From Candidatus Kaiserbacteria bacterium RIFCSPHIGHO2_02_FULL_55_25 (lineage in GTDB: Bacteria; Patescibacteriota; Minisyncoccia; Phycocordibacterales; UBA2100), in the NCBI GenBank assembly GCA_001781335.1, contig MFLL01000001.1, positions 25,626 to 89,625 of the forward strand: DNA of 64,000 nucleotides. The letters run 5' to 3'. Of the stretch, positions 1,859 through 57,548 are shown piece by piece. Position 1 is the first letter of the stretch. Each line of letters begins with the position of its first letter. A program made the position numbers and the translations under genes. Below the pieces are notes generated by a model. That model was given only the letters and a program-made list of their open reading frames with translations, ran no database searches and had not been told where the DNA came from.

Positions 1859-4800
1859 ATGAAAAACTACGACCATAAAGGCATAGAGAAGAAATGGCAG
1901 GATTTCTGGACCAAGAACAAGATTTACACGACCCCTGACTCCGCGCCAAAGAAAGATAATTTCTATCTCCTCGTCGAGTTCCCGTACCCCTCTGGCAACC
2001 TCCATGTCGGCCATTGGTACGCCTTTGCGGTGCCGGACATTTTGGCCCGTTATCACCGCATGCAGGGCAAAAATGTCCTCTATCCGATAGGGTTTGATGC
2101 ATTCGGACTCCCTGCGGAAAACGCCGCCATCAAGAACAAGCTCAACCCACGCAAATGGACGGAAGGGAACATCGCGTACATGAAGAAGCAGATTCAGTCG
2201 ATGGGCACATCGTTCGACTGGTCGCGCGAGGTCGTCACGTGCGACCCGTCGTACTACAAATGGACACAGTGGCTCTTCTTACAGCTCTACAAGAGAGGGC
2301 TCGTCTATCAGAAGGAGACGGCGGTCAATTGGTGCCCCAAGGATAAGACGGTGCTCGCCAATGAGCAGGTCGTCGACGGCAAGTGCGAGCGTTGTGATAC
2401 GGAAGTCGAGCAGCGGCAGATGCTCCAGTGGAATATCAAGATTACCGATTATGCCGACCGTCTCATAGAAGACCTCGAGCCGCTCAACTGGCCGGAGCAG
2501 ATAAAAGAATCGCAAAGGAATTGGATAGGCCGCTCAGAGGGTGCGGAGATTGATTTTCCGCTTGAAATGGGCAAAAAATACAAGTTCGTCTACCTGCACG
2601 GGTATAAGAGTAAGGCTGACAGACCCCGCAATCATTGGTACAGGGCAGGTTTGGAGGCGCTTGGACATGAGGTGATAATACCGGACTTGCCGAATTCAAA
2701 TAATCCAGTCGAAGAGGAGCAAGTAAAAATTGCGATTGAGGCTACGGATTACGACGAAAACACTGTTCTTATTGGGCACAGCTTGGGTGCTGTTGTTGCG
2801 ATGAAGGCGCTTCAAAAAATGAACAAAAAGATAGCACGGCTCGTGCTTATTGCGCCTACGATTGACCCTGCGTTTCCGGGCGCTGAAGAGAGACCGTTCC
2901 ACAAAACCTTTAAATGGGACATTGACTATGAATTGCTGAAGAAACTGGCGCCCAATCGGCTTCTTCTTTCTGATCTGAAAGAGCCTGAAGTCAGAATCAA
3001 TTACATTCGCCACCTCGCGCCGAAACTGGATGCGCAACTCGTTGAAACTCACGCAACTCAAGAACACTTTACGGGTGACAAAGAACCAGACGTTCTAATG
3101 TGGTTGCGACCGACAATACGCGTGTTCACGACCCGCTCCGACACGCTCTTCGGTGCAACATACCTCGTGCTTGCGCCCGAACACCAATTTATCAGGCAGT
3201 TCTACACAAGTCAGACTTCCTTGAATAAGGCAGAGGTCCAGCAATATGTCAATACTGCATTGAAGAGGAGCGACCTTGAACGCCAGACTGACCAGAAAAA
3301 TAAAACCGGGGTGAGGCTCGAAGGGGTAAGCGCAATGAATCCTGCTACGGGGGAGAAGGTACCGCTTTATGTGGCGGATTACGTACTCGGGCACTATGGC
3401 ACCGGTGCCATCATGGCCGTGCCCGCGCACGATGAACGCGACCACGAATTCGCGGAGAAGTTCGGGCTTCCCATCAGGGAAGTTGTCGAGCCCCTCGTCG
3501 TTGCCACGAGTGGCTTTGATGCTATTCATCAGGACGAACCGTTCCAGGAGCGCAACAGCATCATTGCCATCGTGAAGCACTGGTCGGAAGACAAATACAT
3601 TTGTCTCGCGTGGAAGCCGGCAGAATGGAAAGGCTTTGTCGTTGGTGGTATCGAAAAGGGTGAAGATGCCATCGCGGCCGGTGTACGCGAGATCGTCGAA
3701 GAGACCGGGTATCAAAAGCCCACGTTCATACGTCAGCTCGGCGGCACCATTCACGACAAGTTCTATCACACGATAAAAAGGGTCAACACGTTCGCTCACT
3801 TCACGCCGCTCTTGTTCCAGTTGGAAGACGGAACACATGTCGACATCGCAGATACCGAGAAAGATTTGCATGACGTACATTGGGTCGATGCCGATAAGGT
3901 CGCGAATTTTGTGAACAGTCGCGACATCAAGGTCGCTTGGGCGCGAGTGAGCGGTAAGAATATATATACAGGGGAGGGGATACTCAGCAATTCAGGAACA
4001 TTCAGCGGATTGATGACGGAAGAAGGCCGTAAGCAGATGGCCGAGAAATTCGGACGCACGAAGAAAATGTACAAGCTGCGTGATTGGATAGTCAGCCGTC
4101 AGCGGTATTGGGGCGTGCCGATTCCGATGATTCACTGCGAGAAATGCGGCATCGTACCGGTGCCCGACAAGGACTTGCCGGTGGAATTGCCGGAGGTAAA
4201 AGATTATTTGCCGGAGGGAAGCGGGAAGTCGCCGCTCGCAAAGGTCAAAAAATTTGTGGACACGGCGTGTCCTAAATGTGGGGGGAAGGCGAAACGGGAA
4301 ACTGACACGCTCGATACATTTGTAGATTCTTCGTGGTACTTCCTGCGCTATACCGACCCCAAGAATCCCAAGGCCTTTGCATCAAAAGCCAAGCAGGCAA
4401 AATGGATGCCTATCAATCTCTACAGCGGGGGAGCGGAGCACACGACGATGCACTTGCTCTACAGCCGCTTCTGGCACAAGGCGCTCTACGACATGGGGCT
4501 TGTTGCCGACGCGGAGCCATACACCCGCCGCATGAACAGAAGCATTATTCTCGGTCCCGACGGACAAAAGATGAGTAAGTCGCACGGCAACGTAATCGAC
4601 CCCGACGAGGTGGTGGCGCGACTCGGTGCCGACACGGTACGCATGTATTTGGCCTTCGTAGGGCCGTATAACGAGGTTTCCAGCTTCCCATGGAATCCCG
4701 ACGGTGTGGTGGGTGTGAGGCGTTTTCTGGAGCGCGTATGGCGCCTGCAGGAGAAAGTCGGCACAGAGGATGCCGGCGCACTCTCCTCGGCTCTGCATAA

Positions 4801-5236
4801 GGCAATAAAGAAAGTGGGCGAGGATATTGCGGCGCAAAAGTTCAACACCGCGATAAGTCAGCTCATGATTTTGCTCAATGACATGGAGAAGCGGGAATCA
4901 CTATCGCGTAACGAGTGGACAACATTTCTGCGGTTGCTCGCGCCGTTCGCGCCGCACATGGCGGAAGAATTGTGGAGTAGTGCAGGCAACAAAAAATCCA
5001 TCCACGTCCAGAAGTGGCCGCAGTACGATGAAAAATATCTTGTCGACGAAGAAGTTACGTACGGCATTCAAATCGACGGCAAAACACGCGACGAAGTTCG
5101 CGTACCGACCGATGCCGACAAAGAGACTGTTGAAAAAGCTGCACGCGACGTCGTTGCCGCCCGACTGGAAGGAAAGACTATAAAGCGGACTATTGTCGTG
5201 CCAAAGAGGTTGGTGAATTTTGTACTCGAGACATAA
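1859..5236 (+). CDS. leuS: Leucyl-tRNA synthetase (1125 aa) carrying two inserted foreign domains: an alpha/beta serine hydrolase (nt about 2558-3106) and a NUDIX hydrolase (nt about 3542-3958).
   Basis: Class I HIGH motif (HVGH), the CP1 editing start TTRSDTLFGATY, KMSKS, and the C-terminal anticodon-binding region are all present. The insert between NWIGRSEGAEIDF and IRVFTTR has the YdeN/RBBP9 pattern (xxxHGY..NHW, GHSLG nucleophile elbow). The insert after VPAHDERDHEF..GLPI has a Nudix box GGIEKGEDAIAAGVREIVEETGY. The frame is continuous with no stops. Confidence 0.93.
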   Translation: MKNYDHKGIEKKWQDFWTKNKIYTTPDSAPKKDNFYLLVEFPYPSGNLHVGHWYAFAVPDILARYHRMQGKNVLYPIGFDAFGLPAENAAIKNKLNPRKWTEGNIAYMKKQIQSMGTSFDWSREVVTCDPSYYKWTQWLFLQLYKRGLVYQKETAVNWCPKDKTVLANEQVVDGKCERCDTEVEQRQMLQWNIKITDYADRLIEDLEPLNWPEQIKESQRNWIGRSEGAEIDFPLEMGKKYKFVYLHGYKSKADRPRNHWYRAGLEALGHEVIIPDLPNSNNPVEEEQVKIAIEATDYDENTVLIGHSLGAVVAMKALQKMNKKIARLVLIAPTIDPAFPGAEERPFHKTFKWDIDYELLKKLAPNRLLLSDLKEPEVRINYIRHLAPKLDAQLVETHATQEHFTGDKEPDVLMWLRPTIRVFTTRSDTLFGATYLVLAPEHQFIRQFYTSQTSLNKAEVQQYVNTALKRSDLERQTDQKNKTGVRLEGVSAMNPATGEKVPLYVADYVLGHYGTGAIMAVPAHDERDHEFAEKFGLPIREVVEPLVVATSGFDAIHQDEPFQERNSIIAIVKHWSEDKYICLAWKPAEWKGFVVGGIEKGEDAIAAGVREIVEETGYQKPTFIRQLGGTIHDKFYHTIKRVNTFAHFTPLLFQLEDGTHVDIADTEKDLHDVHWVDADKVANFVNSRDIKVAWARVSGKNIYTGEGILSNSGTFSGLMTEEGRKQMAEKFGRTKKMYKLRDWIVSRQRYWGVPIPMIHCEKCGIVPVPDKDLPVELPEVKDYLPEGSGKSPLAKVKKFVDTACPKCGGKAKRETDTLDTFVDSSWYFLRYTDPKNPKAFASKAKQAKWMPINLYSGGAEHTTMHLLYSRFWHKALYDMGLVADAEPYTRRMNRSIILGPDGQKMSKSHGNVIDPDEVVARLGADTVRMYLAFVGPYNEVSSFPWNPDGVVGVRRFLERVWRLQEKVGTEDAGALSSALHKAIKKVGEDIAAQKFNTAISQLMILLNDMEKRESLSRNEWTTFLRLLAPFAPHMAEELWSSAGNKKSIHVQKWPQYDEKYLVDEEVTYGIQIDGKTRDEVRVPTDADKETVEKAARDVVAARLEGKTIKRTIVVPKRLVNFVLET

Positions 5237-5301
5237 ATAGTTGTCGATATGTATATCCTTACGTCTGGTCAATGGTGCGGTTGTAGGGACACGCCGCAAG
5301 T

Positions 5302-6771
5302 TCAGCGCATGCGGATTTCGGGACCTTCCGATGTGTCTTTGATATCGTAGCCCGCTTCGGCTATTGCCACGCGAAGCTCATCGGCGCGCGTCCAGTCTTT
5401 GCCGGTACGCGCTTCCTCCCGTTGCGCTACAAGTAGTGCGACTTCGGCCGGTAAATCATCAACACTGACGGTATCGGCGACGGGAACGTTGAGCGCTTCT
5501 ACACTGCCCAATCCGAGCCCAAGCACGCGGTCTGCGTAGCGCACCGTAGCGGAAATATCCGCGGCGGAAAGTGAACCGTCTTTTGTCGCGTCCCACAGCA
5601 CAGCAAGCGCGCCCGGCGTGTCGAGGTCGTCGTTGAGCCTCTCATGAAAACGGGCACGATATGTTTCCGCCACTACGCCGCCGTCTTCTTGTGCATATTG
5701 CGCGAGACGGGAGAGCGCTGTCGAAGAAGCTTGCAATGCTTCCCAGCTGAAATTGGCGTTCGTCCGGTAGTGCGCGCCGAGGAACAAATAGCGAAGCGCG
5801 AGCGGATGGAAGCCGCGCTCTATGACATCGGAAAGGTAGACGACATTGCCGGCTGATTTGGCGAGTTTGCCGCCCTGAAATTGGATGTGTGCGCGGTGTA
5901 GCCAGAAGCGGGAGAGCGGGCGCTTGCCTATGGCTCCTTCCGACTGCGCTATCTCGTTGTTGTGATGCACCGGTATGTGCTCAATGCCGCCGGTGTGGAT
6001 GTCTATTTGCTCGCCGAGTGTTTTTCGTATCATCGCGGAGCATTCGATATGCCAGCCGGGGAAACCTTGTCCCCACGGGCTCTCCCATCCGATTTTTTCA
6101 TCAAATTTCCACAGCACAAAATCGGTCGGACTGCGTTTACCGGCAACCGCCGCGACACGCGCGCCCTCGCGCAGTCCTTTGATATCAATGCCGCCCAGCT
6201 CGCCGTAGCGGGGGAAATGTGCGGTGTCGAAATAGACGCCGCCTTCGGCTGTGTAGGCATAGCTTTTGTCCATCAGCGCGTGAATCATTGCGATTTGCGC
6301 CGGTATGTAATCACTTGCACGCGGAAATTCTATGCGCGCCGTATCTATGTTGAGCGAGCGGAGGTCGTCGAGAAACATGGCGGTGTACTTTTCTCCGAGC
6401 GCGCGCATGTTCTCGAGCGTAAAATTCATCTTTTCGCTCTTGAGCCCCTTGGACATTTTGTCCTCGCCCTCATCGGCATCCGACGTCAGATGGCCGACGT
6501 CGGTGATGTTGATGACCTGCTTCACTTTGAAACCGTTGTATTCCAGTGCTCTCTTCAGCACGTCGGTAAACACGAACATGCTGAGATTACCGATGTGCTG
6601 GCGGCCGTAGACAGTGGGGCCGCAGTTGTACATGCGTACGGTGTGCGCCTGCGGCGGCATGATAAACGGCTCGTCTTTGCCCGACAGAGTGTTGTGGAGA
6701 TACAGCGGCAATTTTGCAGTCGAGACCGGAGCCGGAGCGAACAGCGTTCGCCATTTTGAGAAAGGCCACAT
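5302..6771 (-). CDS. cysS: Cysteinyl-tRNA synthetase.
   Basis: HIGN (HIGH) and KMSKS motifs are present with the CysRS Zn-binding cysteines. The longest ORF reaches 6783, but that overlaps the corA-like stop. An ATG at 6771 avoids the overlap. A TTG at 6711 would give the canonical LYLHNTLSG N-terminus. Confidence 0.88.
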   Translation of the reverse strand: MWPFSKWRTLFAPAPVSTAKLPLYLHNTLSGKDEPFIMPPQAHTVRMYNCGPTVYGRQHIGNLSMFVFTDVLKRALEYNGFKVKQVINITDVGHLTSDADEGEDKMSKGLKSEKMNFTLENMRALGEKYTAMFLDDLRSLNIDTARIEFPRASDYIPAQIAMIHALMDKSYAYTAEGGVYFDTAHFPRYGELGGIDIKGLREGARVAAVAGKRSPTDFVLWKFDEKIGWESPWGQGFPGWHIECSAMIRKTLGEQIDIHTGGIEHIPVHHNNEIAQSEGAIGKRPLSRFWLHRAHIQFQGGKLAKSAGNVVYLSDVIERGFHPLALRYLFLGAHYRTNANFSWEALQASSTALSRLAQYAQEDGGVVAETYRARFHERLNDDLDTPGALAVLWDATKDGSLSAADISATVRYADRVLGLGLGSVEALNVPVADTVSVDDLPAEVALLVAQREEARTGKDWTRADELRVAIAEAGYDIKDTSEGPEIRMR

Positions 6772-6773
6772 AC

Positions 6774-7685
6774 TTAGAGCCATTTTTTGTGTTTAAAGAA
6801 GACAAACATGGCAATGCCGACAGACATGACCGCGCCGACGATTATCCAGAAATCATGCGGAGTTCCGATTATAGGATTGTCTCTCGCGGCGACGCCGAGA
6901 ATTGCGACGAGTAGTGCAAGAGGGAATGTGAATAGCGCCATGATGGTCAGCATGCGCATTGTTTCGTTTTGCTTGGTGGTGAGAAGGGAATTGTTGGTTT
7001 CGCGAAGCTCATGGAGAAATTCGGTACTGCGCATGATGTGATTGTGTACGCGGTAGTACTCGTTGGAAAGTGTGCGCAGGAAGGGGCGGAACCCCTCGCC
7101 CCAAAAAACAACACCGCCTTCTTCGAGGTCGCGCAGTACTTCGCGGTGTGGTTCGATGGTCTGGCGCAAATTCAACAGGTCGCGCGAGGTGCGCGAAATA
7201 GCGGCGACCATATGCACCTCGTCTCCCGAAAACACGTGGTCCTCGACAAGCTTGAGGTCGTGACGGACGTATTCGAGCTCATGTTCGACGGCGCGGTACA
7301 ACTTCTTGAGCATGTACAAAAATAGATATCCTGCGTGCTCGCCGATAGTGCTTTTGTCGAGAACTGCGTTGACCTCGAACACCTTGGAAAATTTGTGCAG
7401 CGGGTCGACGGTGTCGTAGCGGGTCGTGATGATGAAATTTTGACCGACAATGAAATCCACCTCCTGCTCACGTGTCTTGTGTGAATGGCGCAGGGCAGGG
7501 AAGTGGAGTACCGCATATACATAATTGCGGCGGAATTCGGCACGTGGCTTGCTGGCGGGCAGGAGGAGCTCTTCGGCGATATGCGGCTCAATGTCAAACT
7601 CTGCGGCGACGCGCACGACCTCGTCGCGCGTGGGCGATTCCATGTCAATCCATGTGATACCCTCGTGCTCGAAACGGGTTTGCAT
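6774..7685 (-). CDS. CorA-family divalent cation transporter. The conserved YGMNF motif reads LGVAA (GMN replaced by GVA).
   Basis: A cytoplasmic N-domain is followed by two C-terminal TM helices and a basic KHKKWL tail that aligns to the T. maritima CorA C-terminus. The ORF runs to 7766, but a minus-strand TATAAT at 7698-7693 sits 7 nt upstream of the ATG at 7685, which suggests a leaderless start. Confidence 0.72.
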   Translation of the reverse strand: MQTRFEHEGITWIDMESPTRDEVVRVAAEFDIEPHIAEELLLPASKPRAEFRRNYVYAVLHFPALRHSHKTREQEVDFIVGQNFIITTRYDTVDPLHKFSKVFEVNAVLDKSTIGEHAGYLFLYMLKKLYRAVEHELEYVRHDLKLVEDHVFSGDEVHMVAAISRTSRDLLNLRQTIEPHREVLRDLEEGGVVFWGEGFRPFLRTLSNEYYRVHNHIMRSTEFLHELRETNNSLLTTKQNETMRMLTIMALFTFPLALLVAILGVAARDNPIIGTPHDFWIIVGAVMSVGIAMFVFFKHKKWL

Positions 7686-30624: not shown

Positions 30625-31656
30625 ATGAAGATCGAGAGCATCGGCTTGGCCCTTCCTGCGAGGAAGGTCACCAACGACGACATTCTCAGCGAAATCGCGG
30701 AGCGGAGCACCGGGTTTAAGGGCGACCTGACCCAAGCGCTTCGCACTGTCGACATTATGCTGCGCCACAGCGGATCGTCTACCCGCTACTGGAAGGACGA
30801 TACGCAAAATTCTCTGGATCTGGCTGTGGCGGCCGGACGCGACGCGCTTGCGCGCCTCGACGGCGACGATCATAGCGTGGATCTTATTCTTTACGCGAGC
30901 GTCTACTCCGAACTGAAGGAGCCATCGAGCTCCGGTCCCATCGCGCATGAGCTTGGGATGGACGCCGTCGAGACGTGGGACGTCAAGATGGCGTGCGACG
31001 GATGGATGAAAGCAGTAAAGACGGCGTATGCACTCATCGAAACCGGGCTGTATCGCCGGATAATGGTGGTGACTTCCGAGTTTTCTATGGCGCACAACTA
31101 CGCCATCTATCCGAAACTGTTCGAGCTGGACTCCATTGATCAGCTCGAGTGGCGCTTCCCTGCCTATACGATTGGCGAGGCGGCATCGGCGACGATCCTC
31201 GGTCCGGATCCCGCGAACGGCTGGGCGTTTTTCAACCGGACGAGGAACGATCTGTACGACCTGTGCACCGTTCCGAATCCCTGGTCGAATCCGCGCTCGG
31301 CGCGCGTTGCAAAAGACGGCCTTTCGCACTTCACTTCCTATGGTATAGATCTGCGAAAGCATGGCTTTCCCGGTGCGGTCGAGACATTTCGCGAATCGGG
31401 CATCGACACAAGCAAGGTCGATGTTCTGTTCACGCACTCGTCCTCAAAGGCCGATTGGTCGGCGGGAGCGAAACTCCTCGGGATGCACAACAAGATGTAC
31501 GACATCTACTCAAAGTTCGGCAACGTCGTATCGGGTGCAATCCCGGTCGCGATGGCAAGTGCCGAGCGGGAAGGTACGCTCAAGCGCGGCATGAACGTCG
31601 CCGCGTGGGTCGCATCCGCCGGAATGTCGTTCTCAACCGCCGAGTTCGTATACTAA
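30625..31656 (+). CDS. FabH-like (KAS III / thiolase-fold) enzyme.
   Basis: It aligns to FabH blocks. The active-site Cys is in DVKMACDGW, a His is in FTHSSSK, and there is a GNVVSGAIP C-terminal block. No other fatty-acid synthesis genes are nearby. Confidence 0.7.
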   Translation: MKIESIGLALPARKVTNDDILSEIAERSTGFKGDLTQALRTVDIMLRHSGSSTRYWKDDTQNSLDLAVAAGRDALARLDGDDHSVDLILYASVYSELKEPSSSGPIAHELGMDAVETWDVKMACDGWMKAVKTAYALIETGLYRRIMVVTSEFSMAHNYAIYPKLFELDSIDQLEWRFPAYTIGEAASATILGPDPANGWAFFNRTRNDLYDLCTVPNPWSNPRSARVAKDGLSHFTSYGIDLRKHGFPGAVETFRESGIDTSKVDVLFTHSSSKADWSAGAKLLGMHNKMYDIYSKFGNVVSGAIPVAMASAEREGTLKRGMNVAAWVASAGMSFSTAEFVY

Positions 31657-47657: not shown

Positions 47658-48929
47658 ATGAAATACAACATCCACACTCTCAAGAACTGCCTGCGCGTGA
47701 TTCTCGCGCCGATGCCCGATACCCAGACGGCGACCGTCATTGTGATGACGGGCACGGGCTCGCGCTACGAGACCGCGAAGGAAAACGGACTCGCCCATTT
47801 CCTCGAACACATGTTTTTCAAGGGCACCAAGAAGCGCCCCAGTGCCAAGAAAATCAGCGAGGAGCTCGACGGGCTCGGTAGTCACTACAACGCATTTACC
47901 GCCAAAGACCGCACCGCCTACTATGCCAAGGTCAGCAGCCGCTACATTGATACCGCGCTCGATGTGATAAGCGACATTTTTCTCAATTCGACGCTGCCTG
48001 AAAAAGAAATCACCAAAGAGCGCGGGGCAATCATTCAAGAGATTGATATGTACGAAGACATGCCGATGCGCACGGTAGACAATGTATTCGATGCTCTCAT
48101 CTTCGGCACCGACCACCCGCTCGGCCGCACGATTCTCGGCCCAAAAGAAAACATCAGGCGCTTCAAGCGCAAGGACTTCGACAGCTACCTCAAGCGCCAC
48201 TATACGCCTGCCAATGTCGTCGTTTGTATCGCGGGCAGTTTCAGCGAAAAGAAAGTACTCGCGAAGATAACGAAAGAATTCGGCGCCCTCAAGCAAGGCG
48301 AACATATCAAGCCGCTCCCCTATTGGGCCGCACAAAAAGAGCCGCGCGTCGCTATCAAAGAGAAGAAGACCGACCAGACCCAGCTCATGCTCGGTGTCCC
48401 CGCGTATCCCTACAAGCACAAAGACGAGTACGCTCTCGCGGTCTTGGCCACCATTCTCGGCGGCGGGATGAGCAGTCGCCTCTTCCTCGAAGTGCGCGAG
48501 AAGCGCGGGCTCGCCTACTCGGTACACGCGTGGGTGGACAAATACCCCGATACCGGCTATTTCGTCGTGCAGGCGGGTGTGGAACATGCGAAGCTCGAAA
48601 AGACCGTCGAGACGATTCTCGCGGAGTTCAAAAAGATAAAACGCACCAAAGTCTCGGCCGCCGAGCTCAAGAAGGCCAAGGCATACATCAAAGGCACCAA
48701 GACGCTTTCACTGGAGACGAGTGACGAGGTCGCTGGCAATGCCGCCTCGACACTGCTCAACCTCGGCAAAGTGCGCACGCTCGAAGACGTCTTGCGGGGC
48801 ATAGACAAAGTAACCGCCGCCGACATTCAGCGCGTTGCCCGCGACATACTCCGCACGGAGGGCCTCAACCTCGCCATCATCGGCCCTCATTTGCATAAAG
48901 ACCATTTTTTCTCCCTCTTGCGAGTGTAA
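47658..48929 (+). CDS. M16 family (pitrilysin/insulinase-like) zinc peptidase.
   Basis: The inverted zinc motif HxxEH (HFLEHMFFKGT) with a downstream Glu. Confidence 0.88.
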   Translation: MKYNIHTLKNCLRVILAPMPDTQTATVIVMTGTGSRYETAKENGLAHFLEHMFFKGTKKRPSAKKISEELDGLGSHYNAFTAKDRTAYYAKVSSRYIDTALDVISDIFLNSTLPEKEITKERGAIIQEIDMYEDMPMRTVDNVFDALIFGTDHPLGRTILGPKENIRRFKRKDFDSYLKRHYTPANVVVCIAGSFSEKKVLAKITKEFGALKQGEHIKPLPYWAAQKEPRVAIKEKKTDQTQLMLGVPAYPYKHKDEYALAVLATILGGGMSSRLFLEVREKRGLAYSVHAWVDKYPDTGYFVVQAGVEHAKLEKTVETILAEFKKIKRTKVSAAELKKAKAYIKGTKTLSLETSDEVAGNAASTLLNLGKVRTLEDVLRGIDKVTAADIQRVARDILRTEGLNLAIIGPHLHKDHFFSLLRV

Positions 48930-49003: not shown

Positions 49004-50167
49004 CTACGATTGGACCGGCTTACAGTACGCCGCCTGCACCCGCTGATACAAGAGCCGAGGCGTATAGCCGACGGGTCTGAGCCCTTGGATTGGAGCTACG
49101 CTACATTGCAACTGCTCCAGTCTGTCGGGTGTCCGCCACGCCATGAACGCGTCAAGTGCTTTCCGCCACCAATCACCGACATTTTCGAAGAAGGTGGCAA
49201 CGTCAGCAACCACAGCAACGATCGCCACGATGAACACCACCGTAGTGAAGTAGGCGACGACATAGTTCAGGAAGTTGAAGTCGTAGTCATTCTTCGCCAG
49301 GACGATTGTTGCAATGCCGAGCAGAATGACGTGAGGAAGCGGAGCAAGTAGTACAGCTCCGTTTTCGCCCACGGCGCGCTCCGTGCCGTCAGTCCTTCGC
49401 CCAATCCACGAGGTTTTGTTCTTCTTATGGTGCCACACTTCCACGAAGCTTTGAGTGAATGGGTGGACGATTGCCCCCCAGTCACACCGTAGCCCGCACA
49501 ACACGCCGTAAAACATCGCGGTGCCGAACCGGAACAGTGTCATCAGCACGAGCCATATTGCAACCGCCGTTGGTTGCAATAGAGGGAAGTACGCTATGAA
49601 CCGGCGCCGACGGATGGAGCAGGAGTTCTTCGCGTACGTCGGGAACAGCAAGTTGATCCACCATTCTTCGCGGGACGAGAGCACAGGAGCGAAAAAGTCT
49701 GCGGATACATTGATGGTCCGCTCGGCGAGGCCGAAACGCCTCAGTCCCATTGCGTGGCGACGTTTGTCGGTATGCCCGCCAACGAGGTCGTTCAGCGAGT
49801 AACGATATTGCCCGTATTGTCCGTCGAGCAACCACGATCGAATTTTCTTCGCTCGATGTTGTTTGCTCCAGACGACGCTGGCGCAGATCGTGTGCGTACC
49901 GCTCGCGTGGAACTGAATGAGCTCACGCTGGCTCGTAAGGTCGAAGACGTATCGCACTTCGTGCCCTTCAGGATTTTTAATCGACACCAACACGAGCGCA
50001 TTCTTGATGTCGTTGTCGCGCACAAAATCCAAGAAAGGCTTCGCCACGCACCACTGAAGGTACATGGTAGCGCTTGACGTCGTTTGCGTGTAGTCGTAAA
50101 GGAGCTGGAGCCCGATATTGGGCAATTTCATCTCTCTTCTCACGCGCTTCGATAGAGTCGCTGACAT
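49004..50167 (-). CDS. Hypothetical protein with a cytoplasmic N-domain and C-terminal TM helices (387 aa).
   Basis: Clean ORF. No family recognised. Confidence 0.5.
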   Translation of the reverse strand: MSATLSKRVRREMKLPNIGLQLLYDYTQTTSSATMYLQWCVAKPFLDFVRDNDIKNALVLVSIKNPEGHEVRYVFDLTSQRELIQFHASGTHTICASVVWSKQHRAKKIRSWLLDGQYGQYRYSLNDLVGGHTDKRRHAMGLRRFGLAERTINVSADFFAPVLSSREEWWINLLFPTYAKNSCSIRRRRFIAYFPLLQPTAVAIWLVLMTLFRFGTAMFYGVLCGLRCDWGAIVHPFTQSFVEVWHHKKNKTSWIGRRTDGTERAVGENGAVLLAPLPHVILLGIATIVLAKNDYDFNFLNYVVAYFTTVVFIVAIVAVVADVATFFENVGDWWRKALDAFMAWRTPDRLEQLQCSVAPIQGLRPVGYTPRLLYQRVQAAYCKPVQS

Positions 50168-50247: not shown

Positions 50248-50335
50248 CTTTACAGCCAATCAATGGGTTTTTTGTTGTGGGCCGCAAGATACTCGTTCGT
50301 TTTGCTGAATGGCTTGGAGCCGAAGAAGCCGCTAC
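50248..50335 (-). pseudogene. Diverged duplicate of the ung 3' end. It encodes ...[27 protein letters not shown] against authentic ...[27 protein letters not shown].
   Basis: The nucleotide alignment to 50887-50985 is about 85% identical and the reading frame is conserved. The fragment lies on the far side of the mazF-like gene from ung. Confidence 0.75.
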
Positions 50336-50481
50336 TATTTGCTTATTCAATTGAATTAGCAAGTAAGCCTACCTCGTCGCCTTATCCTCGCCTTTCACTT
50401 GCTTTTCATACAGATAAGCGTAGAATGCACGGACAGTTGGCTTCGGCCTCGCCCCCGCAAGGGGGAAAGAGTAGAAAACCG

Positions 50482-50868
50482 CTAGAGCATCGCTTTGGCG
50501 GCTTTCTTTCTTAATGCATCGAAAGGTGCCTTGTCGAGAAAGCCAATGCGGTTCTGTAACCGACGTGTATCAACGACTCGCAATTGCGAAAGATTTGCTC
50601 GAGCCTCCTGGTCTTCAATTAATCCAACAGGTACGCGTAGCGCGTGTTTACGCAGAGACGTCGTGAGCGGCACTATCAAGCATGCATCGGGGCCGAATCC
50701 TCGCATGATTACACACGGGCGAACGTGCCACTCGCCTTTCCCATCTTGTTCTGTGCCAATGTTTACACCAAGTCGACACCACCAGACTTCGCGCACGGTA
50801 TACAAACGCGGTTGTTCGGCATTTGTTTTCTTCTTTACCTCGTTCCACCCATCAAAATCTTTTTCCAT
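50482..50868 (-). CDS. MazF/PemK-family toxin-like protein (mRNA interferase fold). No antitoxin gene is adjacent.
   Basis: PemK/MazF pattern ...RPCVIM...ACLIVPLTT...VPV...LSQLRVVDTRRL..RIG.L. A minus-strand TACAAT sits 7 nt upstream of the ATG. Confidence 0.65.
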   Translation of the reverse strand: MEKDFDGWNEVKKKTNAEQPRLYTVREVWWCRLGVNIGTEQDGKGEWHVRPCVIMRGFGPDACLIVPLTTSLRKHALRVPVGLIEDQEARANLSQLRVVDTRRLQNRIGFLDKAPFDALRKKAAKAML

Positions 50869-50886
50869 TCGTGAGATTGTAACATC

Positions 50887-51567
50887 CTACAACCAATCAA
50901 TCGGTTTTTTGGAGTGGGCCGATAGATAGTCGTTGGTTTTGCTGAATGGCTTTGAGCCGAAGAAGCCGTTGTATGCTGAAAACGGCGACGGATGCGGCGA
51001 TTCAATGACGAAATGCTTTGCGCGGTCGATGTGCGCGCCTTTTGCTTTGGCGTAGTTGCCCCACAGGATAAAAACGAGATTCTCGCGCTCTTCGGAGAGT
51101 TTGCGAATGACCGCATCGGTGAATTGCTCCCACCCCTGCCCCTGATGCGAACCCGCTTTGCGCGCGCTCACCGTCAGAGTCGCATTGAGAAGAAGAACTC
51201 CTTGCTTGGACCAATGTTCGAGATTACCCTTCTTCGCCAAGGCTTCGAAGGGCAAAGAACAATCTGCTGAAAGTTCTTTGAATATATTCTGAAGCGACGG
51301 CGGCAAGCGCTGGCCTTCGCTCACCGCGAAACACAGACCGTTGGCCTGATTGGGACCGTGGTACGGGTCTTGGCCAAGTATTACCACTTGGATTTTGTCG
51401 AACGGGCATAGGTCGAACGCGCGGAAAATATTCTTGGGCGGCGGGTACACAATCCCATGCAAGTATTCGCTTTTTACAAATTCCCGCAGCATCTTGAAGT
51501 AATCCTTGCCGAATTCATCCTTCAGCACCGCTTTCCACGACGCCTCTATCTGTACCTCCTTTTCCAT
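50887..51567 (-). CDS. ung: Uracil-DNA glycosylase (family 1).
   Basis: It has GQDPYHGPNQANGLCFAV and HPSPFSAYNGFFG. Confidence 0.93.
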   Translation of the reverse strand: MEKEVQIEASWKAVLKDEFGKDYFKMLREFVKSEYLHGIVYPPPKNIFRAFDLCPFDKIQVVILGQDPYHGPNQANGLCFAVSEGQRLPPSLQNIFKELSADCSLPFEALAKKGNLEHWSKQGVLLLNATLTVSARKAGSHQGQGWEQFTDAVIRKLSEERENLVFILWGNYAKAKGAHIDRAKHFVIESPHPSPFSAYNGFFGSKPFSKTNDYLSAHSKKPIDWL

Positions 51568-55459: not shown

Positions 55460-56590
55460 TCACTTCTCCGCAAAAGGCATCACTTTTTGTTTTTTGTCCT
55501 CTTTCGGCTTCGCCGCTGCGGGCACGGGAGCTGTGTTTTTTGCCAGTATGCCACCACCGAGACAGCGACCGCCGTCATACACAACGGCTGATTGCCCCGG
55601 AGAGATTACGTGCGGCTCGCCGAAGTCGACATACGCGCGCTTGCCTTCGCTGCGTAGCTTGATGGGAAGCGGCGTCTCCCGGTAGCGCATTTGTGCGGCA
55701 AGGCCGGTAAGGAACGACGGAGCGACTCCCGATATCCAATGCATGTCCAGCACAACGGTGCCCGCGCGCGCCGCGTCGGAACGGTTTGCCGACACTATCA
55801 CGATGTTGTTCTTGGTGTCGATACCGGTGACATAGTGCGGCGTCTTCGCCAACTGCTTCTTGGTGACGGTGAATCCGTGCCGCTGCCCGATAGTGTAGAG
55901 CGCGGCACCTTCGTGGACGCCGAGGATATGGCCCTTTTTGTCGGTCACGCGCCCCTCGGCAACAGTGATAAAGCGCTTCAGAAAATCGCGCATACTGACG
56001 TCGCCGACAAAACACAGGCCCTGACTGTCGGGCTTCTGCGCGACGGGAAGGGAGTGCGCTTTTGCATATGCGCGTACCTGTTTTTTTGTCATTGCGCCGA
56101 CGGGGAACGCGGAGCGCGAGAGGTCGCCCTGATTGAGTTGGTACAAAAAGTACGACTGGTCTTTGTCTTTGTCGACACCGCGCCACAGCTCGGGACCATG
56201 CTCGCCCTGTTTTATCTGCGCATAATGACCGGTCGCAACCACATCGGCACCCTCGGCGCGCGCCCATTTAGAGAACGCGCCGAACTTGATACTGCGATTG
56301 CACAGCACGTCGGGATTCGGTGTCTCGCCCGCGCTGTACGACGAAATCATTTTTGTGACGACCTCATTTTTGTACTCTTCGGACAAATCAATCTCTTTGA
56401 ACGGTATGCCGAGCGCTGCGGCAACGCGCATCGCATCGAGCCGGTCGCGCTGCCACGTGCACTCGATAAATTCCGGCTGCCAAATCTTTATGAAAACGCC
56501 CACAACCTTGTGCCCCTGTTCTTTGAGGAGCGCGGCACTCACCGCGCTATCCACTCCTCCCGAAAGCCCGACAAAAACCGTATGCGCCAT
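55460..56590 (-). CDS. mnmA: tRNA-specific 2-thiouridylase MnmA.
   Basis: PP-loop SGGVDSAV, catalytic cysteines, and the remaining MnmA signatures. Confidence 0.93.
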   Translation of the reverse strand: MAHTVFVGLSGGVDSAVSAALLKEQGHKVVGVFIKIWQPEFIECTWQRDRLDAMRVAAALGIPFKEIDLSEEYKNEVVTKMISSYSAGETPNPDVLCNRSIKFGAFSKWARAEGADVVATGHYAQIKQGEHGPELWRGVDKDKDQSYFLYQLNQGDLSRSAFPVGAMTKKQVRAYAKAHSLPVAQKPDSQGLCFVGDVSMRDFLKRFITVAEGRVTDKKGHILGVHEGAALYTIGQRHGFTVTKKQLAKTPHYVTGIDTKNNIVIVSANRSDAARAGTVVLDMHWISGVAPSFLTGLAAQMRYRETPLPIKLRSEGKRAYVDFGEPHVISPGQSAVVYDGGRCLGGGILAKNTAPVPAAAKPKEDKKQKVMPFAEK

Positions 56591-56644
56591 CGCACTACTA
56601 TATCAAAATTTACCAACGTACCGAGGTTTAATCTCATCATCTCG

Positions 56645-57415
56645 TGGCAAGGTAAGACCTTGCCATTTTTGTGTTATGCTTTTTGCCTATGGGCGATCGC
56701 ATCGTTTATTTCCAACCCGGAGAATGGTTCCACTGCTACAGTCGCGGTGTCGATAAAAGACGTGTATTTATATCAGCAAGCGATTATCAGCGTTTTCAGG
56801 CGCTGCTGTATGCATGTAACAATACTGATATGATTCACGTCAGTAATTACGGTCAAGGCTTTCGAAGTAAAAATCTTACTAATGTACTGAGTATTCCTCG
56901 GAGCGAATCGCTTGTTGACATCGGGGCATATAATCTGATGCCAAACCATTATCACCTTTTGTTGCGGGAACAGGTTGATGGTGGGGTGACTTCGTTCATG
57001 CGCAAAATCGGAACTGCGTACACCATGTACTTTAATATCAAGAACAAGCGCTCGGGTGCACTGTTCGAGGGTGCATTCAAAGCGAAACACGTTAAAACGG
57101 ATGCGTACTTCCGCAGAGTGTTCAATTACATTCAAGGCAATCATGCAGAACTTTCGGAGCCGCGATGGAAAGAAGGTGTCATCCAAAACGACCGGGCACT
57201 TATAGAGTCACTTCTCGCCTATCCATACTCGAGCCTTAAAGACTTCAACGGACCATCGAGACCAGAGCGCGCAATAGTTAACCGCAACTCGATACTCGAC
57301 ATCATTGACGAAATTCCGAACCCTAGAAAAATCCTTGAGGACGCTCGCATATTCGCTCGACTACACGAGGACGGCCTGTAACGCATCTACCTTATGGCAA
57401 GGTCTTACCTTGCCA
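56645..57415. mobile_element. RAYT/IS200-like element 3, flanked by inverted REP-like hairpins tggcaagg-taaga-ccttgcca (56645-56665) and tggcaagg-tctta-ccttgcca (57395-57415).
   Basis: The stems are identical and the loops are reverse complements, so the two hairpins are in inverted orientation. A third related hairpin tcatgagcaagg-aagac-ccttgctcatga lies at 57549-57577. Confidence 0.72.
56689..57381 (+). CDS. tnpA: HUH Y1 transposase-like protein, paralog 3.
   Basis: It has YNLMPNHYHLLL and VFNYIQGNHAEL. By alignment to the paralogs the start is the MGDRIVYFQ Met. Confidence 0.8.
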   Translation: MGDRIVYFQPGEWFHCYSRGVDKRRVFISASDYQRFQALLYACNNTDMIHVSNYGQGFRSKNLTNVLSIPRSESLVDIGAYNLMPNHYHLLLREQVDGGVTSFMRKIGTAYTMYFNIKNKRSGALFEGAFKAKHVKTDAYFRRVFNYIQGNHAELSEPRWKEGVIQNDRALIESLLAYPYSSLKDFNGPSRPERAIVNRNSILDIIDEIPNPRKILEDARIFARLHEDGL

Positions 57416-57487
57416 TTTACTGAGAAGCGCGGCTGACACCGCGCTGTCCACGCCACCGGAAAGTCCGACAAAAACCGTGTGTGCCAT
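57392..57487 (-). pseudogene. Duplicated mnmA 5' fragment. It encodes MAHTVFVGLSGGVDSAVSAALL, identical to authentic MnmA residues 1-22, then reads into the REP hairpin and stops.
   Basis: I compared it codon by codon with 56525-56590. There are about 10 nucleotide differences in 66 nt and all are synonymous. Confidence 0.72.
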
Positions 57488-57548
57488 TGCGTAAGGATAC
57501 TACAGTGGACAAAAGAATGAACCCCCGCGAGAGGCGAGGGTGTGTTGC

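Follow-up and report, generated by a model that had tools for sequence, protein, structure and literature searches.

In a 64-kb stretch of DNA from Candidatus Kaiserbacteria (the window, to whose numbering all positions refer), the region 50332-50886 appears to be a compact, self-contained toxin-antitoxin cassette with an RNA antitoxin, gained by homologous recombination with a related lineage; we put the probability of this reading at about 0.6. The cassette lies between two copies of the 3' end of ung, and its two elements are a MazF/PemK-family toxin gene and a candidate small RNA gene that converges on it. The ung 3' end itself is a hotspot at which insertions recur in Candidatus Kaiserbacteria; more than one kind of cassette was observed there, and displaced ung ends are stacked.

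The MazF/PemK-family toxin gene

A gene on the minus strand (50482-50868) encodes a 128-aa product that, judged by its profile match, is a member of the MazF/PemK family (Pfam PF02452, 5.6e-11). The original prediction had proposed a MazF/PemK-fold ORF at this location and a search with the PemK_toxin HMM, which yielded a score of 43.1 bits (cut-off 23.1) and covered profile positions 3-106 of 109. NCBIfam models and PADLOC gave no match to the product. Its N-terminal FDxWN..KK motif is specific to the subfamily. The family profile matches EndoA of Bacillus subtilis (4MDX) at 1.6e-9, and across 27 diverse members residues R50, Q95 and R103 are invariant, with T69 and R97 nearly so. In the profile alignment, R50, T69, Q95 and R97 coincide with the VRP, IT and EQIR motifs of 4MDX; we take R25, T48 and Q79 of EndoA to have the catalytic Arg, the Thr/Ser and the (E/S)Q-x-R substrate-binding roles, respectively. 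An AlphaFold2 model built from a shallow alignment was of low confidence (mean pLDDT 61, 75-83 in the core), and when this model was used in a Foldseek search of the PDB the best 38 matches were all MazF or CcdB, proteins with an SH3-like barrel, each match being weak (E 2e-3, TM 0.43-0.52).

The start of mazF is separated by 18 nt from the end of ung, which lies upstream. An extended -10 element, TGtTACAAT, was read by eye from the sequence at 50876-50884 on the minus strand, 7 nt before the mazF ATG, in keeping with the expectation that the gene has a -10 box of its own; a TGnTAnnnT close to the ATG also occurs in L024, L058, L020 and others among the loci compared (which carry Lnnn labels). 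Since the element is only 7 nt from the ATG, the mazF mRNA is predicted to be probably leaderless. A promoter scan showed no full sigma-70 promoter around mazF.

A candidate small RNA gene convergent with mazF

On the plus strand, a candidate small RNA of about 78 nt (50433-50510) is made up of three hairpins. P1 is a UUCG hairpin (GGCUUCGGCC, 50439-50448) conserved in the cassettes, P2 is a covarying GNRA hairpin (CCCCC-GCAA-GGGGG, 50452-50465), and P3, located by a terminator scan at 50479-50512, is a bidirectional terminator (A-tract, stem and U-tract) that overlaps the last mazF codons and the stop codon. RNAalifold gave 16 pairs for P3, nine of them with compensatory changes. P1 is conserved (invariant) in sequence as well as in structure, a feature that simple antisense pairing leaves unexplained and that counts against the proposed reading; a compensatory change of GGCUUCGGCC to GCCUUCGGGC is present in five sequences. 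Upstream of P1 is a sigma-70-type promoter with a -35 of TTGCTT (50399-50404) and a -10 of TAGAAT (50421-50426), separated by a spacer of 16 nt and followed after 12 nt by P1. This layout is maintained among the cassettes, with a spacer of 16-17 nt in 32 of 37 and 12-13 nt between the -10 and P1 in 29 of 37. At 50382-50390, also on the plus strand, TTATCCTCG weakly resembles a TTATCCACA-like box that some cassettes have ahead of their -35.

The small RNA element was found downstream of mazF in all 37 cassettes examined (33 loci), down to a MazF amino-acid identity of 36%. A covariance model (R1) had its only strong match in the window at this site, with 82.6 bits and an E value of 2e-16, the window being one of the training sequences; it also recovered untrained sequences in L041 (75.8 bits), in a second copy in L030 (59.2 bits) and in L049 (43.8 bits). 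Within the alignment 23 pairs were identified, 95% of cells were paired, and 13 pairs showed double changes, a level of covariation reached by none of 500 shuffles, while slid controls paired at 41-65%. The minimum free energy of the RNA is -38 kcal/mol (z -3.9). Rfam returned no relevant match for the window region at E<=10 or for six related loci at E<=1, and phage carriage was tested by searching viral contigs for exact copies of the RNA core, none of which was found.

No antitoxin-like protein ORF is present at the locus or conserved next to mazF in 35 loci, which extends the earlier remark that no antitoxin-sized ORF lies nearby. The sole recurrent neighboring "ORF" in these 35 loci is spurious and comes from translating the RNA element, and a hidden protein antitoxin was ruled out because no neighboring ORF is conserved across them. 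The adjacent, co-transcribed antitoxin gene that defines type II (MazEF) systems is accordingly missing. The original prediction had also described the toxin gene as an orphan, a label that proved misleading, since a convergent small RNA gene follows mazF in every relative examined; the antisense RNA that it suggested looking for has its counterpart in this gene, the candidate antitoxin. Comparative evidence supports a cis-encoded RNA gene on the opposite strand that overlaps or abuts the toxin gene, as in type I systems, with a 3' overlap of about 40-50 nt between mazF mRNA and small RNA predicted through the shared terminator. The same comparative evidence predicts that the RNA is transcribed in the Kaiserbacteria host, and it is most likely this RNA, not a protein, that would restrain the toxin.

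A counterpart is found on the Campylobacter jejuni plasmid pVir, where CJJ81176_pVir0047 is a MazF homolog of 30% identity with the N-terminal FDxWN..KK motif. A type I toxin-antitoxin system of C. jejuni 81-176 pVir, cjrA/cjpT, is said to have been described by Shen and colleagues in 2016 in Mol Microbiol 101:909. CJpv3, a 77-nt sRNA running from pVir position 31119 to 31043, was detected by Northern blot and has a transcription start site (TSS) with a step height of 16164 (Dugar et al., 2013; PMC3656092, Tables S5, S12 and S14). It is encoded on the strand opposite pVir0047 and ends 5 nt past the pVir0047 stop codon. We infer that CjpT is pVir0047 and that CjrA is CJpv3; in the open-access PMC and bioRxiv literature searched, neither cjrA and cjpT named together nor pVir0047 under the name CjpT was found. 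Two papers cite CjrA as an antitoxin that acts as an antisense RNA in a type I system of strain 81-176, located on pVir (PMC10470494; PMC7826846). The mapped pVir TSS lies upstream of a TTGACT motif, which would be the -35 in our reading of the Patescibacteria promoters, and the exact 5' end of the small RNA in the window may therefore differ from that given above.

The hairpins might instead be a 3' UTR, a terminator or a stabilizer of the mazF mRNA and not an RNA gene, with the toxin being controlled otherwise or non-toxic. They do follow the mazF stop codon directly, and P3 also serves as the mazF terminator. What makes this explanation quite improbable is that the opposite strand has a conserved promoter whose -35 and -10 are well spaced, that the loops are UUCG and GNRA when read on that strand, that distant "type B" cassettes have the hairpin and U-tract on the opposite strand only, and that the abundant pVir transcript comes from the opposite strand as well.

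The ung repeat and the insertion hotspot

The uracil-DNA glycosylase gene ung (50887-51567, minus strand, 226 aa) is intact, with 318 bits against a cut-off of 162 for the NCBIfam ung equivalog and a match to Pfam UDG. Its 3' end occurs twice, and the original prediction was correct in that the duplicate is real and that the first copy is the true gene end. The repeat search placed the authentic copy at 50888-50968 on the minus strand and the displaced copy at 50251-50331; with its own TAA stop codon at 50250-50252, the latter occupies 50250-50331 on the minus strand. The direct repeat is 81 nt long and 89% identical, not about 85% as first estimated, and the ranges initially assigned to it (50887-50985 and 50248-50335) locate it while overshooting slightly. 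The spacing is 637 bp from repeat start to repeat start, and the insert between the copies is 556 bp. Homology is bounded by the stop codon on one side and by 50968/50331 on the other, and the longest identical runs between the two copies are 15-17 nt. Codon alignment bore out that the frame is kept and that four amino-acid changes occur in 27 residues when the junction codon is counted. Adjoining the displaced copy, a spacer at 50332-50378 contains the palindrome TTGCTTATTCAATTGAATTAGCAAG and an ATAGTAG junction; it is absent from L022. The suspicion that the duplicate might be an assembly artifact was ruled out, as a 3.6-kb region with the same structure is 99.97-100% identical across many separate assemblies from several Rifle-aquifer samples (ENA records under two naming schemes, JGI records and NCBI records). 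No tRNA or tmRNA target is present in the window.

Only one other direct repeat of at least 35 nt exists in the 64-kb window, at mnmA, where the same pattern had been proposed and is borne out. The authentic mnmA 5' end (56524-56593) and a displaced copy (57421-57490), which together delimit 56524-57490 on the minus strand, enclose a Y1_Tnp/RAYT-like gene (56671-57381, plus strand) and flanked by inverted hairpins (56645-56665 and 57395-57415). The two mnmA copies differ at 11 nt, distributed 1/1/9 over codon positions 1/2/3, and by no amino-acid change, and this case behaves in the same way as that of ung. With a Y1 transposase gene 6 kb away, IS200/IS605-style hairpin mobilization of the mazF cassette was considered and rejected: there is no hairpin at the mazF-proximal end, and the cassette hairpins behave as RNA (loops, covariation and the pVir transcript).

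Comparison of the loci showed that the conserved right flank of the hotspot is an M16 peptidase gene (47658-48929, plus strand). The junction of interest in other strains is hence that of ung with the M16 peptidase gene and not the ung-eamA junction suggested earlier, because eamA lies on the side of ung opposite the cassette insertion. From the displaced ung end to the M16 peptidase gene extends a variable slot, which in the window holds a 387-aa ORF (49004-50167, minus strand), a neighbor outside the cassette; this ORF had no family matches and only five clusters in the protein database, and it is missing from L022 and replaced in L003.

The ung-mazF adjacency recurs in related Kaiserbacteria species, with MazF proteins that are 84-85% identical, and L022 has the whole repeat structure (85 nt at 84%), which is at odds with the view of a recent, strain-specific insertion. 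Nor does a single insertion event describe the site, given the several cassettes and stacked displaced ung ends. L058 contains another cassette, followed by ATAGTA with a displaced ung end and then mazF, and L003 and L059 contain other displaced ung ends with other cargo. L064 is without a cassette, ung being followed by about 295 nt and then M16; the ung end is single-copy in L064 and in L024. More widely, the MazF subfamily comprises at least 769 clusters at 50% identity, mostly from Patescibacteria and also from Bradyrhizobium and epsilonproteobacterial plasmids. About two-thirds of the loci with MazF homologs have no bracketing repeat, which counts against the reading put forward here.

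Origin of the two ung ends

The distribution of differences over codon positions carries information on how the repeat arose. Between ung copies the differences at positions 1/2/3 were 3/1/5, 1/1/12 and 1/2/8, so that in the pooled data 25 of 34 fell at position 3 (p=2e-6 against an expectation of 1/3, and 5e-4 against 0.44). The bias also holds between displaced copies (W2-K2, 2/3/12, p=0.002; K2-L058d, 1/1/10), and the gene copies of L032 differ by 2/2/10. Such a third-position bias means that the ung copies were not born identical and that both stem from functional genes in diverged lineages. The codon-position pattern supports recombination with donor DNA that carried a diverged ung end; this part of the original proposal, in which a Campbell-type or homologous event would have inserted donor DNA, agrees with the data. 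The ung gene is itself mosaic between lineages, and identity profiles along it revealed no decisive breakpoint.

As we envisage it, the extended -10 would drive mazF, a predicted MazF/PemK-fold endoribonuclease with conserved catalytic Arg and Thr, and the convergent promoter would drive the small RNA of about 78 nt with its UUCG hairpin, GNRA hairpin and terminator. Through the shared bidirectional terminator, the 3' part of the small RNA and the 3' end of the mazF mRNA are complementary. The RNA could pair with this end of the mRNA (a type I mode) or could instead bind the toxin protein (a type III mode). A donor of a related lineage would have carried an ung end, the cassette and another ung end, and the cassette would have arrived, or been re-acquired, by homologous recombination. 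This could proceed either by a double crossover, in which the body of ung and its displaced end provide the two arms of homology, or by a Campbell-type single crossover of a circle. By both routes ung would stay intact, the resident end would be left as the displaced copy and no cassette-encoded recombinase would be needed. Two observations count against homologous recombination: identical runs of 15-17 nt are short for a RecA-type process, and the shared junction together with the SATK/RFFG anomaly described below fits a trans-acting site-specific recombinase at least equally well.

Site-specific integration would make the ung 3' end an attB site at which a trans-encoded tyrosine or serine recombinase stacks cassettes bearing an attP-like ung end, in the manner of tandem accretion at tRNA genes, cis-mobilizable elements or integron cassettes. 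In the window, L022 and L058 the displaced copy does have the same left edge to within 2 nt, ATAGTA precedes the displaced copy in two different cassettes, and in L058 and L059 the authentic ung is anomalous (SATK/RFFG) at exactly the codon where the displaced copy starts; cassettes are stacked in L058, and the Bradyrhizobium homolog adjoins a large serine recombinase. We nevertheless consider this mechanism rather unlikely. The displaced copies of L003 and L059 start elsewhere, no recombinase was found in the cassette, in the Kaiserbacteria loci fetched or among the scanned window genes next to the site, and the cassette ends coincide with functional ends, which leaves no space for a recombination site inside. 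Elsewhere, the repeats on either side of the cassettes (37-301 nt) derive from unrelated genes of the respective locus, and hence there is no common att sequence. Differing junctions, as in L003 and L059, are what homology-facilitated illegitimate recombination would give if a donor anchored in ung had its far end joined 81 nt before the recipient stop codon; such joining would likewise account for the divergence of donor from recipient and for the missing recombinase, and DNA uptake by these organisms is probable. The same junction in three genomes with two cargos is, however, unlikely to come from independent joins, and we hold this origin to be very unlikely. If the junction had a single origin and homologous recombination subsequently spread it, this explanation merges with the one that we favor.

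Highly improbable is a long target duplication, in which a staggered break of about 81 nt is filled in to give identical copies, one of which then decays as a pseudogene. The locus does share features with the published cases, which are mostly from bacteria competent for DNA uptake (Furuta et al., 2010; PMC2853133): the unit is of the addiction type, the insert is shorter than 20 kb and devoid of mobility genes, the repeats exceed 30 bp, and comparators have one copy of the target. In those cases, where near-identity at birth is expected, the repeats are 94-100% identical, whereas here the identity is 81-91%, and the third-position bias, seen between displaced copies too, cannot result from a decaying pseudogene. 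Staggered-cut duplication with subsequent decay was thus rejected by the codon-position test.

Implications

Our broader proposal, which we advance tentatively and consider possible but doubtful, is that this MazF subfamily forms a non-type-II class with a convergent, structured RNA antitoxin, carried on a recombinase-free mobile cassette of about 550 bp whose portable homology arm is a copy of a conserved host gene end. If so, ordinary homologous recombination could bring the cassette into any related genome and leave the target gene unharmed. Databases name the subfamily "type II PemK/MazF family toxin", yet no protein partner accompanies it, and its conserved RNA partner is missing from Rfam. 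Relabeling would re-annotate hundreds of gene families and provide a tractable RNA-protein pair for unculturable organisms, and it would link one experimentally studied Campylobacter plasmid system to a widespread candidate-phyla cassette. The codon-position signature offers a simple and general means of telling a gene-end duplication made in place from one imported from another lineage. The locus would also illustrate how ultra-small genomes that lack obvious machinery for mobile elements can acquire genes and stack them at housekeeping loci.

Comparison with known systems

With the type II systems MazEF, PemIK and Kid-Kis, the cassette has in common Pfam PF02452 and the conserved catalytic Arg and Thr, its best structural relatives being EndoA and MazF. 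It differs from them in that it has neither an upstream MazE/PemI-type antitoxin nor an operon, and in that its mazF encodes an extra 25 conserved N-terminal residues and is accompanied by an RNA partner. In the type I systems txpA/RatA and bsrG/SR4 of B. subtilis and par/fst RNA I-RNA II of Enterococcus faecalis the two RNAs are convergent and overlap at their 3' ends, and those of par/fst share a bidirectional terminator. The same convergent arrangement, 3' overlap and shared terminator are predicted here, but the toxins of those systems are small membrane peptides; a small hydrophobic peptide is typical of type I, though not universal, and the toxin here is a soluble 128-aa MazF-family protein and predicted RNase. 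To our knowledge, few nuclease toxins have an RNA antitoxin. One such pair is SymE/SymR (PMC1891008). In type III ToxIN an endoribonuclease toxin is neutralized by a structured RNA, as proposed for the cassette. ToxN has a Kid/MazF-like fold. ToxI, unlike the small RNA, is a tandem-repeat array located upstream of toxN on the same strand, whereas the RNA described here is single-copy, convergent and downstream, and a repeat search revealed no tandem repeats of the type III kind around mazF.

As to the manner of insertion, laboratory insertion-duplication (Campbell-type) integration with a 3'-end fragment also leaves an intact gene and a truncated duplicate flanking the insert, and in the minimal mobile elements of Neisseria cassettes are exchanged by recombination in their flanks. 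The present case is a natural one, and the duplicated end of the host gene seems to act as a portable homology arm. Long target duplications (Nobusato et al., 2000; Furuta et al., 2010; PMC2853133) similarly involve selfish, addiction-type units without mobility genes between local-target repeats of more than 30 bp; here, in contrast, the combination of 81-91% identity with synonymous-site bias indicates two copies from different lineages and not one duplication, the gene end is regenerated and events are stacked.

A close parallel in arrangement is pVir cjrA/cjpT, in which a protein toxin is restrained by an antisense small RNA, the role that we infer for the RNA of the window. Both involve a member of the same MazF subfamily (pVir0047 in the plasmid) without an adjacent protein antitoxin, and on pVir, too, a convergent sRNA with three hairpins and 77 nt ends 5 nt after the stop codon of the toxin homolog. 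The primary sequences of the RNAs are unrelated, the Patescibacteria RNA having an invariant UUCG hairpin, and the terminator of the window type overlaps the last codons of the toxin gene. Finally, pVir provides a context of plasmid maintenance, whereas the Kaiserbacteria cassette lies on the chromosome, behind a housekeeping gene.

The duplicated ung 3′ end in the window

A repeat search of the window returned only two direct repeats of at least 35 nt in the whole 64 kb, one at ung and one at mnmA. The ung repeat spans 81 nt (50251–50331 versus 50888–50968) and is bounded by the stop codon on one side and by ...GAAGAAGCCG on the other. Copy 1 is the genuine ung terminus (50887–51567, minus strand; NCBIfam ung equivalog, 318 bits). 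Copy 2, the displaced end, keeps the frame and its own stop (TAA at 50250–50252), with four residues changed when the junction codon is counted; frame and changes agree with the original prediction, although the computed identity is 89% and not ~85%. A 3.6-kb region is 99.97–100% identical across many separately assembled contigs from several samples; therefore the duplication is real, and an assembly artifact, the explanation that had been named as its possible undoing, is ruled out. The junction sequence GGCTTCTTCGGC (50957–50968) resembles hairpin P1, GGCTTCGGCC (50439–50448), of the small RNA described below, in the opposite orientation relative to the cassette; this likeness is probably due to chance.

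The similar pattern claimed for mnmA was also found. The first 22 codons of this gene are duplicated (56524–57490) around the gene of a 236-aa IS200-like/RAYT-like Y1 transposase (56671–57381, plus strand), beside which lie the inverted hairpins TGGCAAGGTAAGACCTTGCCA (56645–56665 and 57395–57415). The mnmA copies differ at 11 nt, distributed 1/1/9 over codon positions 1/2/3, all synonymous, with 0 amino acid changes in the 22 codons.

The MazF toxin

The 128-aa ORF between the ung copies (50482–50868, minus strand) matched Pfam PemK_toxin at 5.6e-11, as anticipated, and the toxin belongs to the MazF family. A profile built from 27 diverse relatives matched Bacillus subtilis EndoA/MazF (4MDX) at 1.6e-9; among these relatives R50, Q95 and R103 never vary and T69 and R97 hardly do, and the conserved residues align with the EndoA motifs VRP, IT and EQIR. 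The best 38 structure matches of a low-confidence AlphaFold model (pLDDT 61) were all MazF or CcdB. An invariant N-terminal motif (F5, D6, W8, K12) is distinctive of the subfamily, which is large, with at least 769 clusters at 50% identity (E up to 1e-10), most members being from Patescibacteria; Bradyrhizobium has copies with 73% identity, and there are distant homologs (27–36% identity) on plasmids of Nitratiruptor, Helicobacter and Campylobacter. Only 18 nt separate the ung end from the mazF start. Since an extended −10 box (TGtTACAAT) lies 7 nt upstream of the ATG, no ribosome-binding site precedes the gene, and comparable −10 boxes lie near the mazF ATG at other loci, we infer that the mazF mRNA is leaderless.

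A candidate convergent small RNA accompanies mazF

The toxin had been described as an orphan. This stands with respect to proteins, no conserved protein-coding neighbor of mazF being found across 35 loci, but the toxin is probably not partnerless: one common element, read on the strand opposite mazF, lies 3′ of the gene in 37/37 cassettes examined, a candidate for the small antisense RNA that the original prediction had suggested looking for. Searches of the window region (E up to 10) and of six related loci (E up to 1) gave no relevant Rfam match. Oriented opposite to mazF, it comprises a −35 box (TTGAC(A/T) or TTGCnT), a spacer of 16–17 nt (32/37), a −10 box (TAnnnT), 12–13 nt leading to P1 (29/37), hairpin P1 (GGC-UUCG-GCC, invariant apart from five sequences with the compensatory variant GCC-UUCG-GGC), the trinucleotide UCG, hairpin P2 (variable G+C stem, loop mostly GNRA) and a terminator. 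In cassettes of the window type, terminator P3 is formed by an A-tract, a stem and a U-tract; this hairpin overlaps the last codons and stop of mazF, and hence transcripts from both directions are predicted to be able to end there. Distant paralogs have a U-tract directly behind P2, and only on the opposite strand.

RNAalifold applied to 21 sequences gave 23 pairs, of which 13 show compensatory changes; in this alignment 95% of the cells pair, versus 41–65% with the partners slid, and the observed values were reached by 0/500 shuffles. The predicted folding energy of the 80-nt RNA is −38 kcal/mol (z −3.9). A covariance model produced a single strong match in the window (50432–50510, plus strand, 82.6 bits), the window sequence being in its training set, and also recovered elements outside that set. 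Judged from these comparisons, the partner of mazF appears to be an RNA rather than a protein, with a putative antitoxin role. That the P1 sequence does not vary may point to its being recognized by a protein, perhaps by MazF, which would be a type III-like mode.

A TTATCCACA-like (DnaA-box-like) motif occurs 6–8 nt upstream of the small-RNA promoter, ahead of the −35 box, in ~10/37 cassettes (including those of loci L046, L050, L020, L026 and L028) and is thus not universal; TTATCCACA is exact in two cassettes, and the window has TTATCCTCG at 50382–50390. This box may be a regulator site. At L139, a Nitratiruptor plasmid locus with a distant homolog, a 62-aa ORF (TIRVEDDLWDKF...) follows two hairpins (1955–2143); because it looks ribbon-helix-helix-like by eye, a protein partner or regulator may exist as well in some branches of the subfamily.

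An insertion hotspot behind ung

Comparison of related loci indicates that the interval between ung and the M16 peptidase gene is an insertion hotspot in Kaiserbacteria. At L022 (ung identity 82%), mazF and its RNA are followed by an 85-nt displaced ung end (84% identical) and directly by M16, and at L024 (ung 86%) they occur without a displaced copy. L058 (ung 81%) has a cassette (3289–3887) that pairs a 68-aa ORF with a retropepsin-like aspartyl protease of 131 aa (Pfam Asp_protease_2, 6.8e-5), then ATAGTA and a displaced ung end, then mazF, so that the two-gene cassette sits between ung and an older ung-end-plus-mazF unit. L059 (ung 81%) retains a 27-nt ung-end remnant before another leaderless small gene, with repeated CCTCCCGAGGTTTAACCTC(GGGAG) hairpins of REP-type look around this small cassette (1085–1120 and 1595–1640), and L064 (ung 71%) has ~295 nt only, without a cassette. 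L003 (3556–4904, compared with window 50250–50480) is a population variant identical to the window through ung, mazF and the RNA hairpins, which changes to a ~85%-identical lineage within the RNA promoter; its displaced end is shorter and not the one of the window, and another gene lies downstream. The switch is either a recombination breakpoint inside the cassette or a chimeric contig.

In the window, the variable slot after the displaced end holds a 387-aa ORF (49004–50167, minus strand) with predicted hydrophobic segments. It matches nothing in Pfam, NCBIfam or PADLOC, and 5.8 billion proteins contain only 5 clusters of it; the ORF is missing from L022 and replaced in L003 by a 129/137-aa ORF. 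Elsewhere, the repeats that flank MazF cassettes are copies of unrelated local gene ends (301 nt at L032, 65 nt at L047), the repeat reaching five copies at L020; about two-thirds of the loci have no bracketing repeat. The L020 array (3400–7000) consists of three MazF paralog cassettes, each with an RNA element, interleaved with five copies of an 88-nt membrane-protein gene 5′ fragment and a NYN-domain gene; it directly follows rplB, a position at which another ribosomal-protein gene would normally come next.

Origin of the duplication

Had a staggered cut generated identical copies, the displaced copy would be expected to decay evenly over codon positions. The ung copies differ by 3/1/5 (positions 1/2/3) in the window, 1/1/12 in L022 and 1/2/8 in L058, and those of the L032 gene by 2/2/10. 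For the three ung pairs pooled, 25/34 differences fall at position 3 (p=2e-6 versus 1/3; 5e-4 versus a generous 0.44), and two displaced copies from different genomes differ by 2/3/12 (p=0.002). This concentration at third positions makes a staggered cut followed by decay very unlikely; because of it, both copies appear to have diverged inside functional genes of different lineages, which supports the originally proposed recombination with donor DNA. The ung gene is visibly mosaic between lineages: window 51222–51279 is 87–96% identical to L024 and L059 and 65–75% to L022 and L058, and outside this segment all four are similar, a split that indicates recombination between lineages inside ung.

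Homologous recombination alone would suffice and is the simplest route. A donor of the form ung, ung-end, cassette, ung-end′ could recombine on the left via the ung body and on the right via the displaced end, or a circle could be integrated by a single crossover; either way, ung would remain intact, the junction would be carried along, and the displaced copy would largely be the recipient's former end. The cassette begins and ends where its functional parts do. A site-specific recombinase acting in trans is equally compatible, given the junction position common to several loci, the occurrence of ATAGTA with two different cargos and an anomaly that L058 and L059 show in their authentic ung, but a search of the surroundings of the locus found no recombinase. 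The anomaly, SAT(K/R)FFG versus SAYNGFFG (L058 3190–3215; L059 985–1010), is one codon shorter and sits exactly at the codon where displaced copies start in other genomes; it may be the scar of a junction. Overall, the original observation at ung is confirmed and its interpretation partly supported.

Comparison with known systems

The ung insertion is similar to those of restriction-modification genes by 'long target duplication' (PMC2853133), although its repeats were never identical. As for the toxin, pVir of Campylobacter jejuni 81-176 encodes a 134-aa subfamily member (30634–31038, old tag CJJ81176_pVir0047), with 860 nt between it and the next gene listed in the PLSDB table, which is incomplete. 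On the opposite strand lies the 77-nt sRNA CJpv3 (31119 to 31043), which was detected by Northern blot and whose TSS, a very strong one, is marked as antisense to pVir0047 (Dugar et al., 2013; PMC3656092). The Northern probe sequence falls within 31119–31043, and CJpv3 folds into three hairpins. Since a TTGACT motif follows shortly after the pVir TSS, the predicted 5′ end of the Patescibacteria RNAs may be inexact. Two papers (PMC10470494 and PMC7826846) cite CjrA as an antisense RNA antitoxin of a type I system on pVir of strain 81-176; we infer that CJpv3 corresponds to CjrA and pVir0047 to its toxin, CjpT. The protein antitoxin that defines type II is not present in the mazF system, whose predicted architecture, with convergent transcripts overlapping at their 3′ ends, is that of type I; cjrA/cjpT is its probable precedent.
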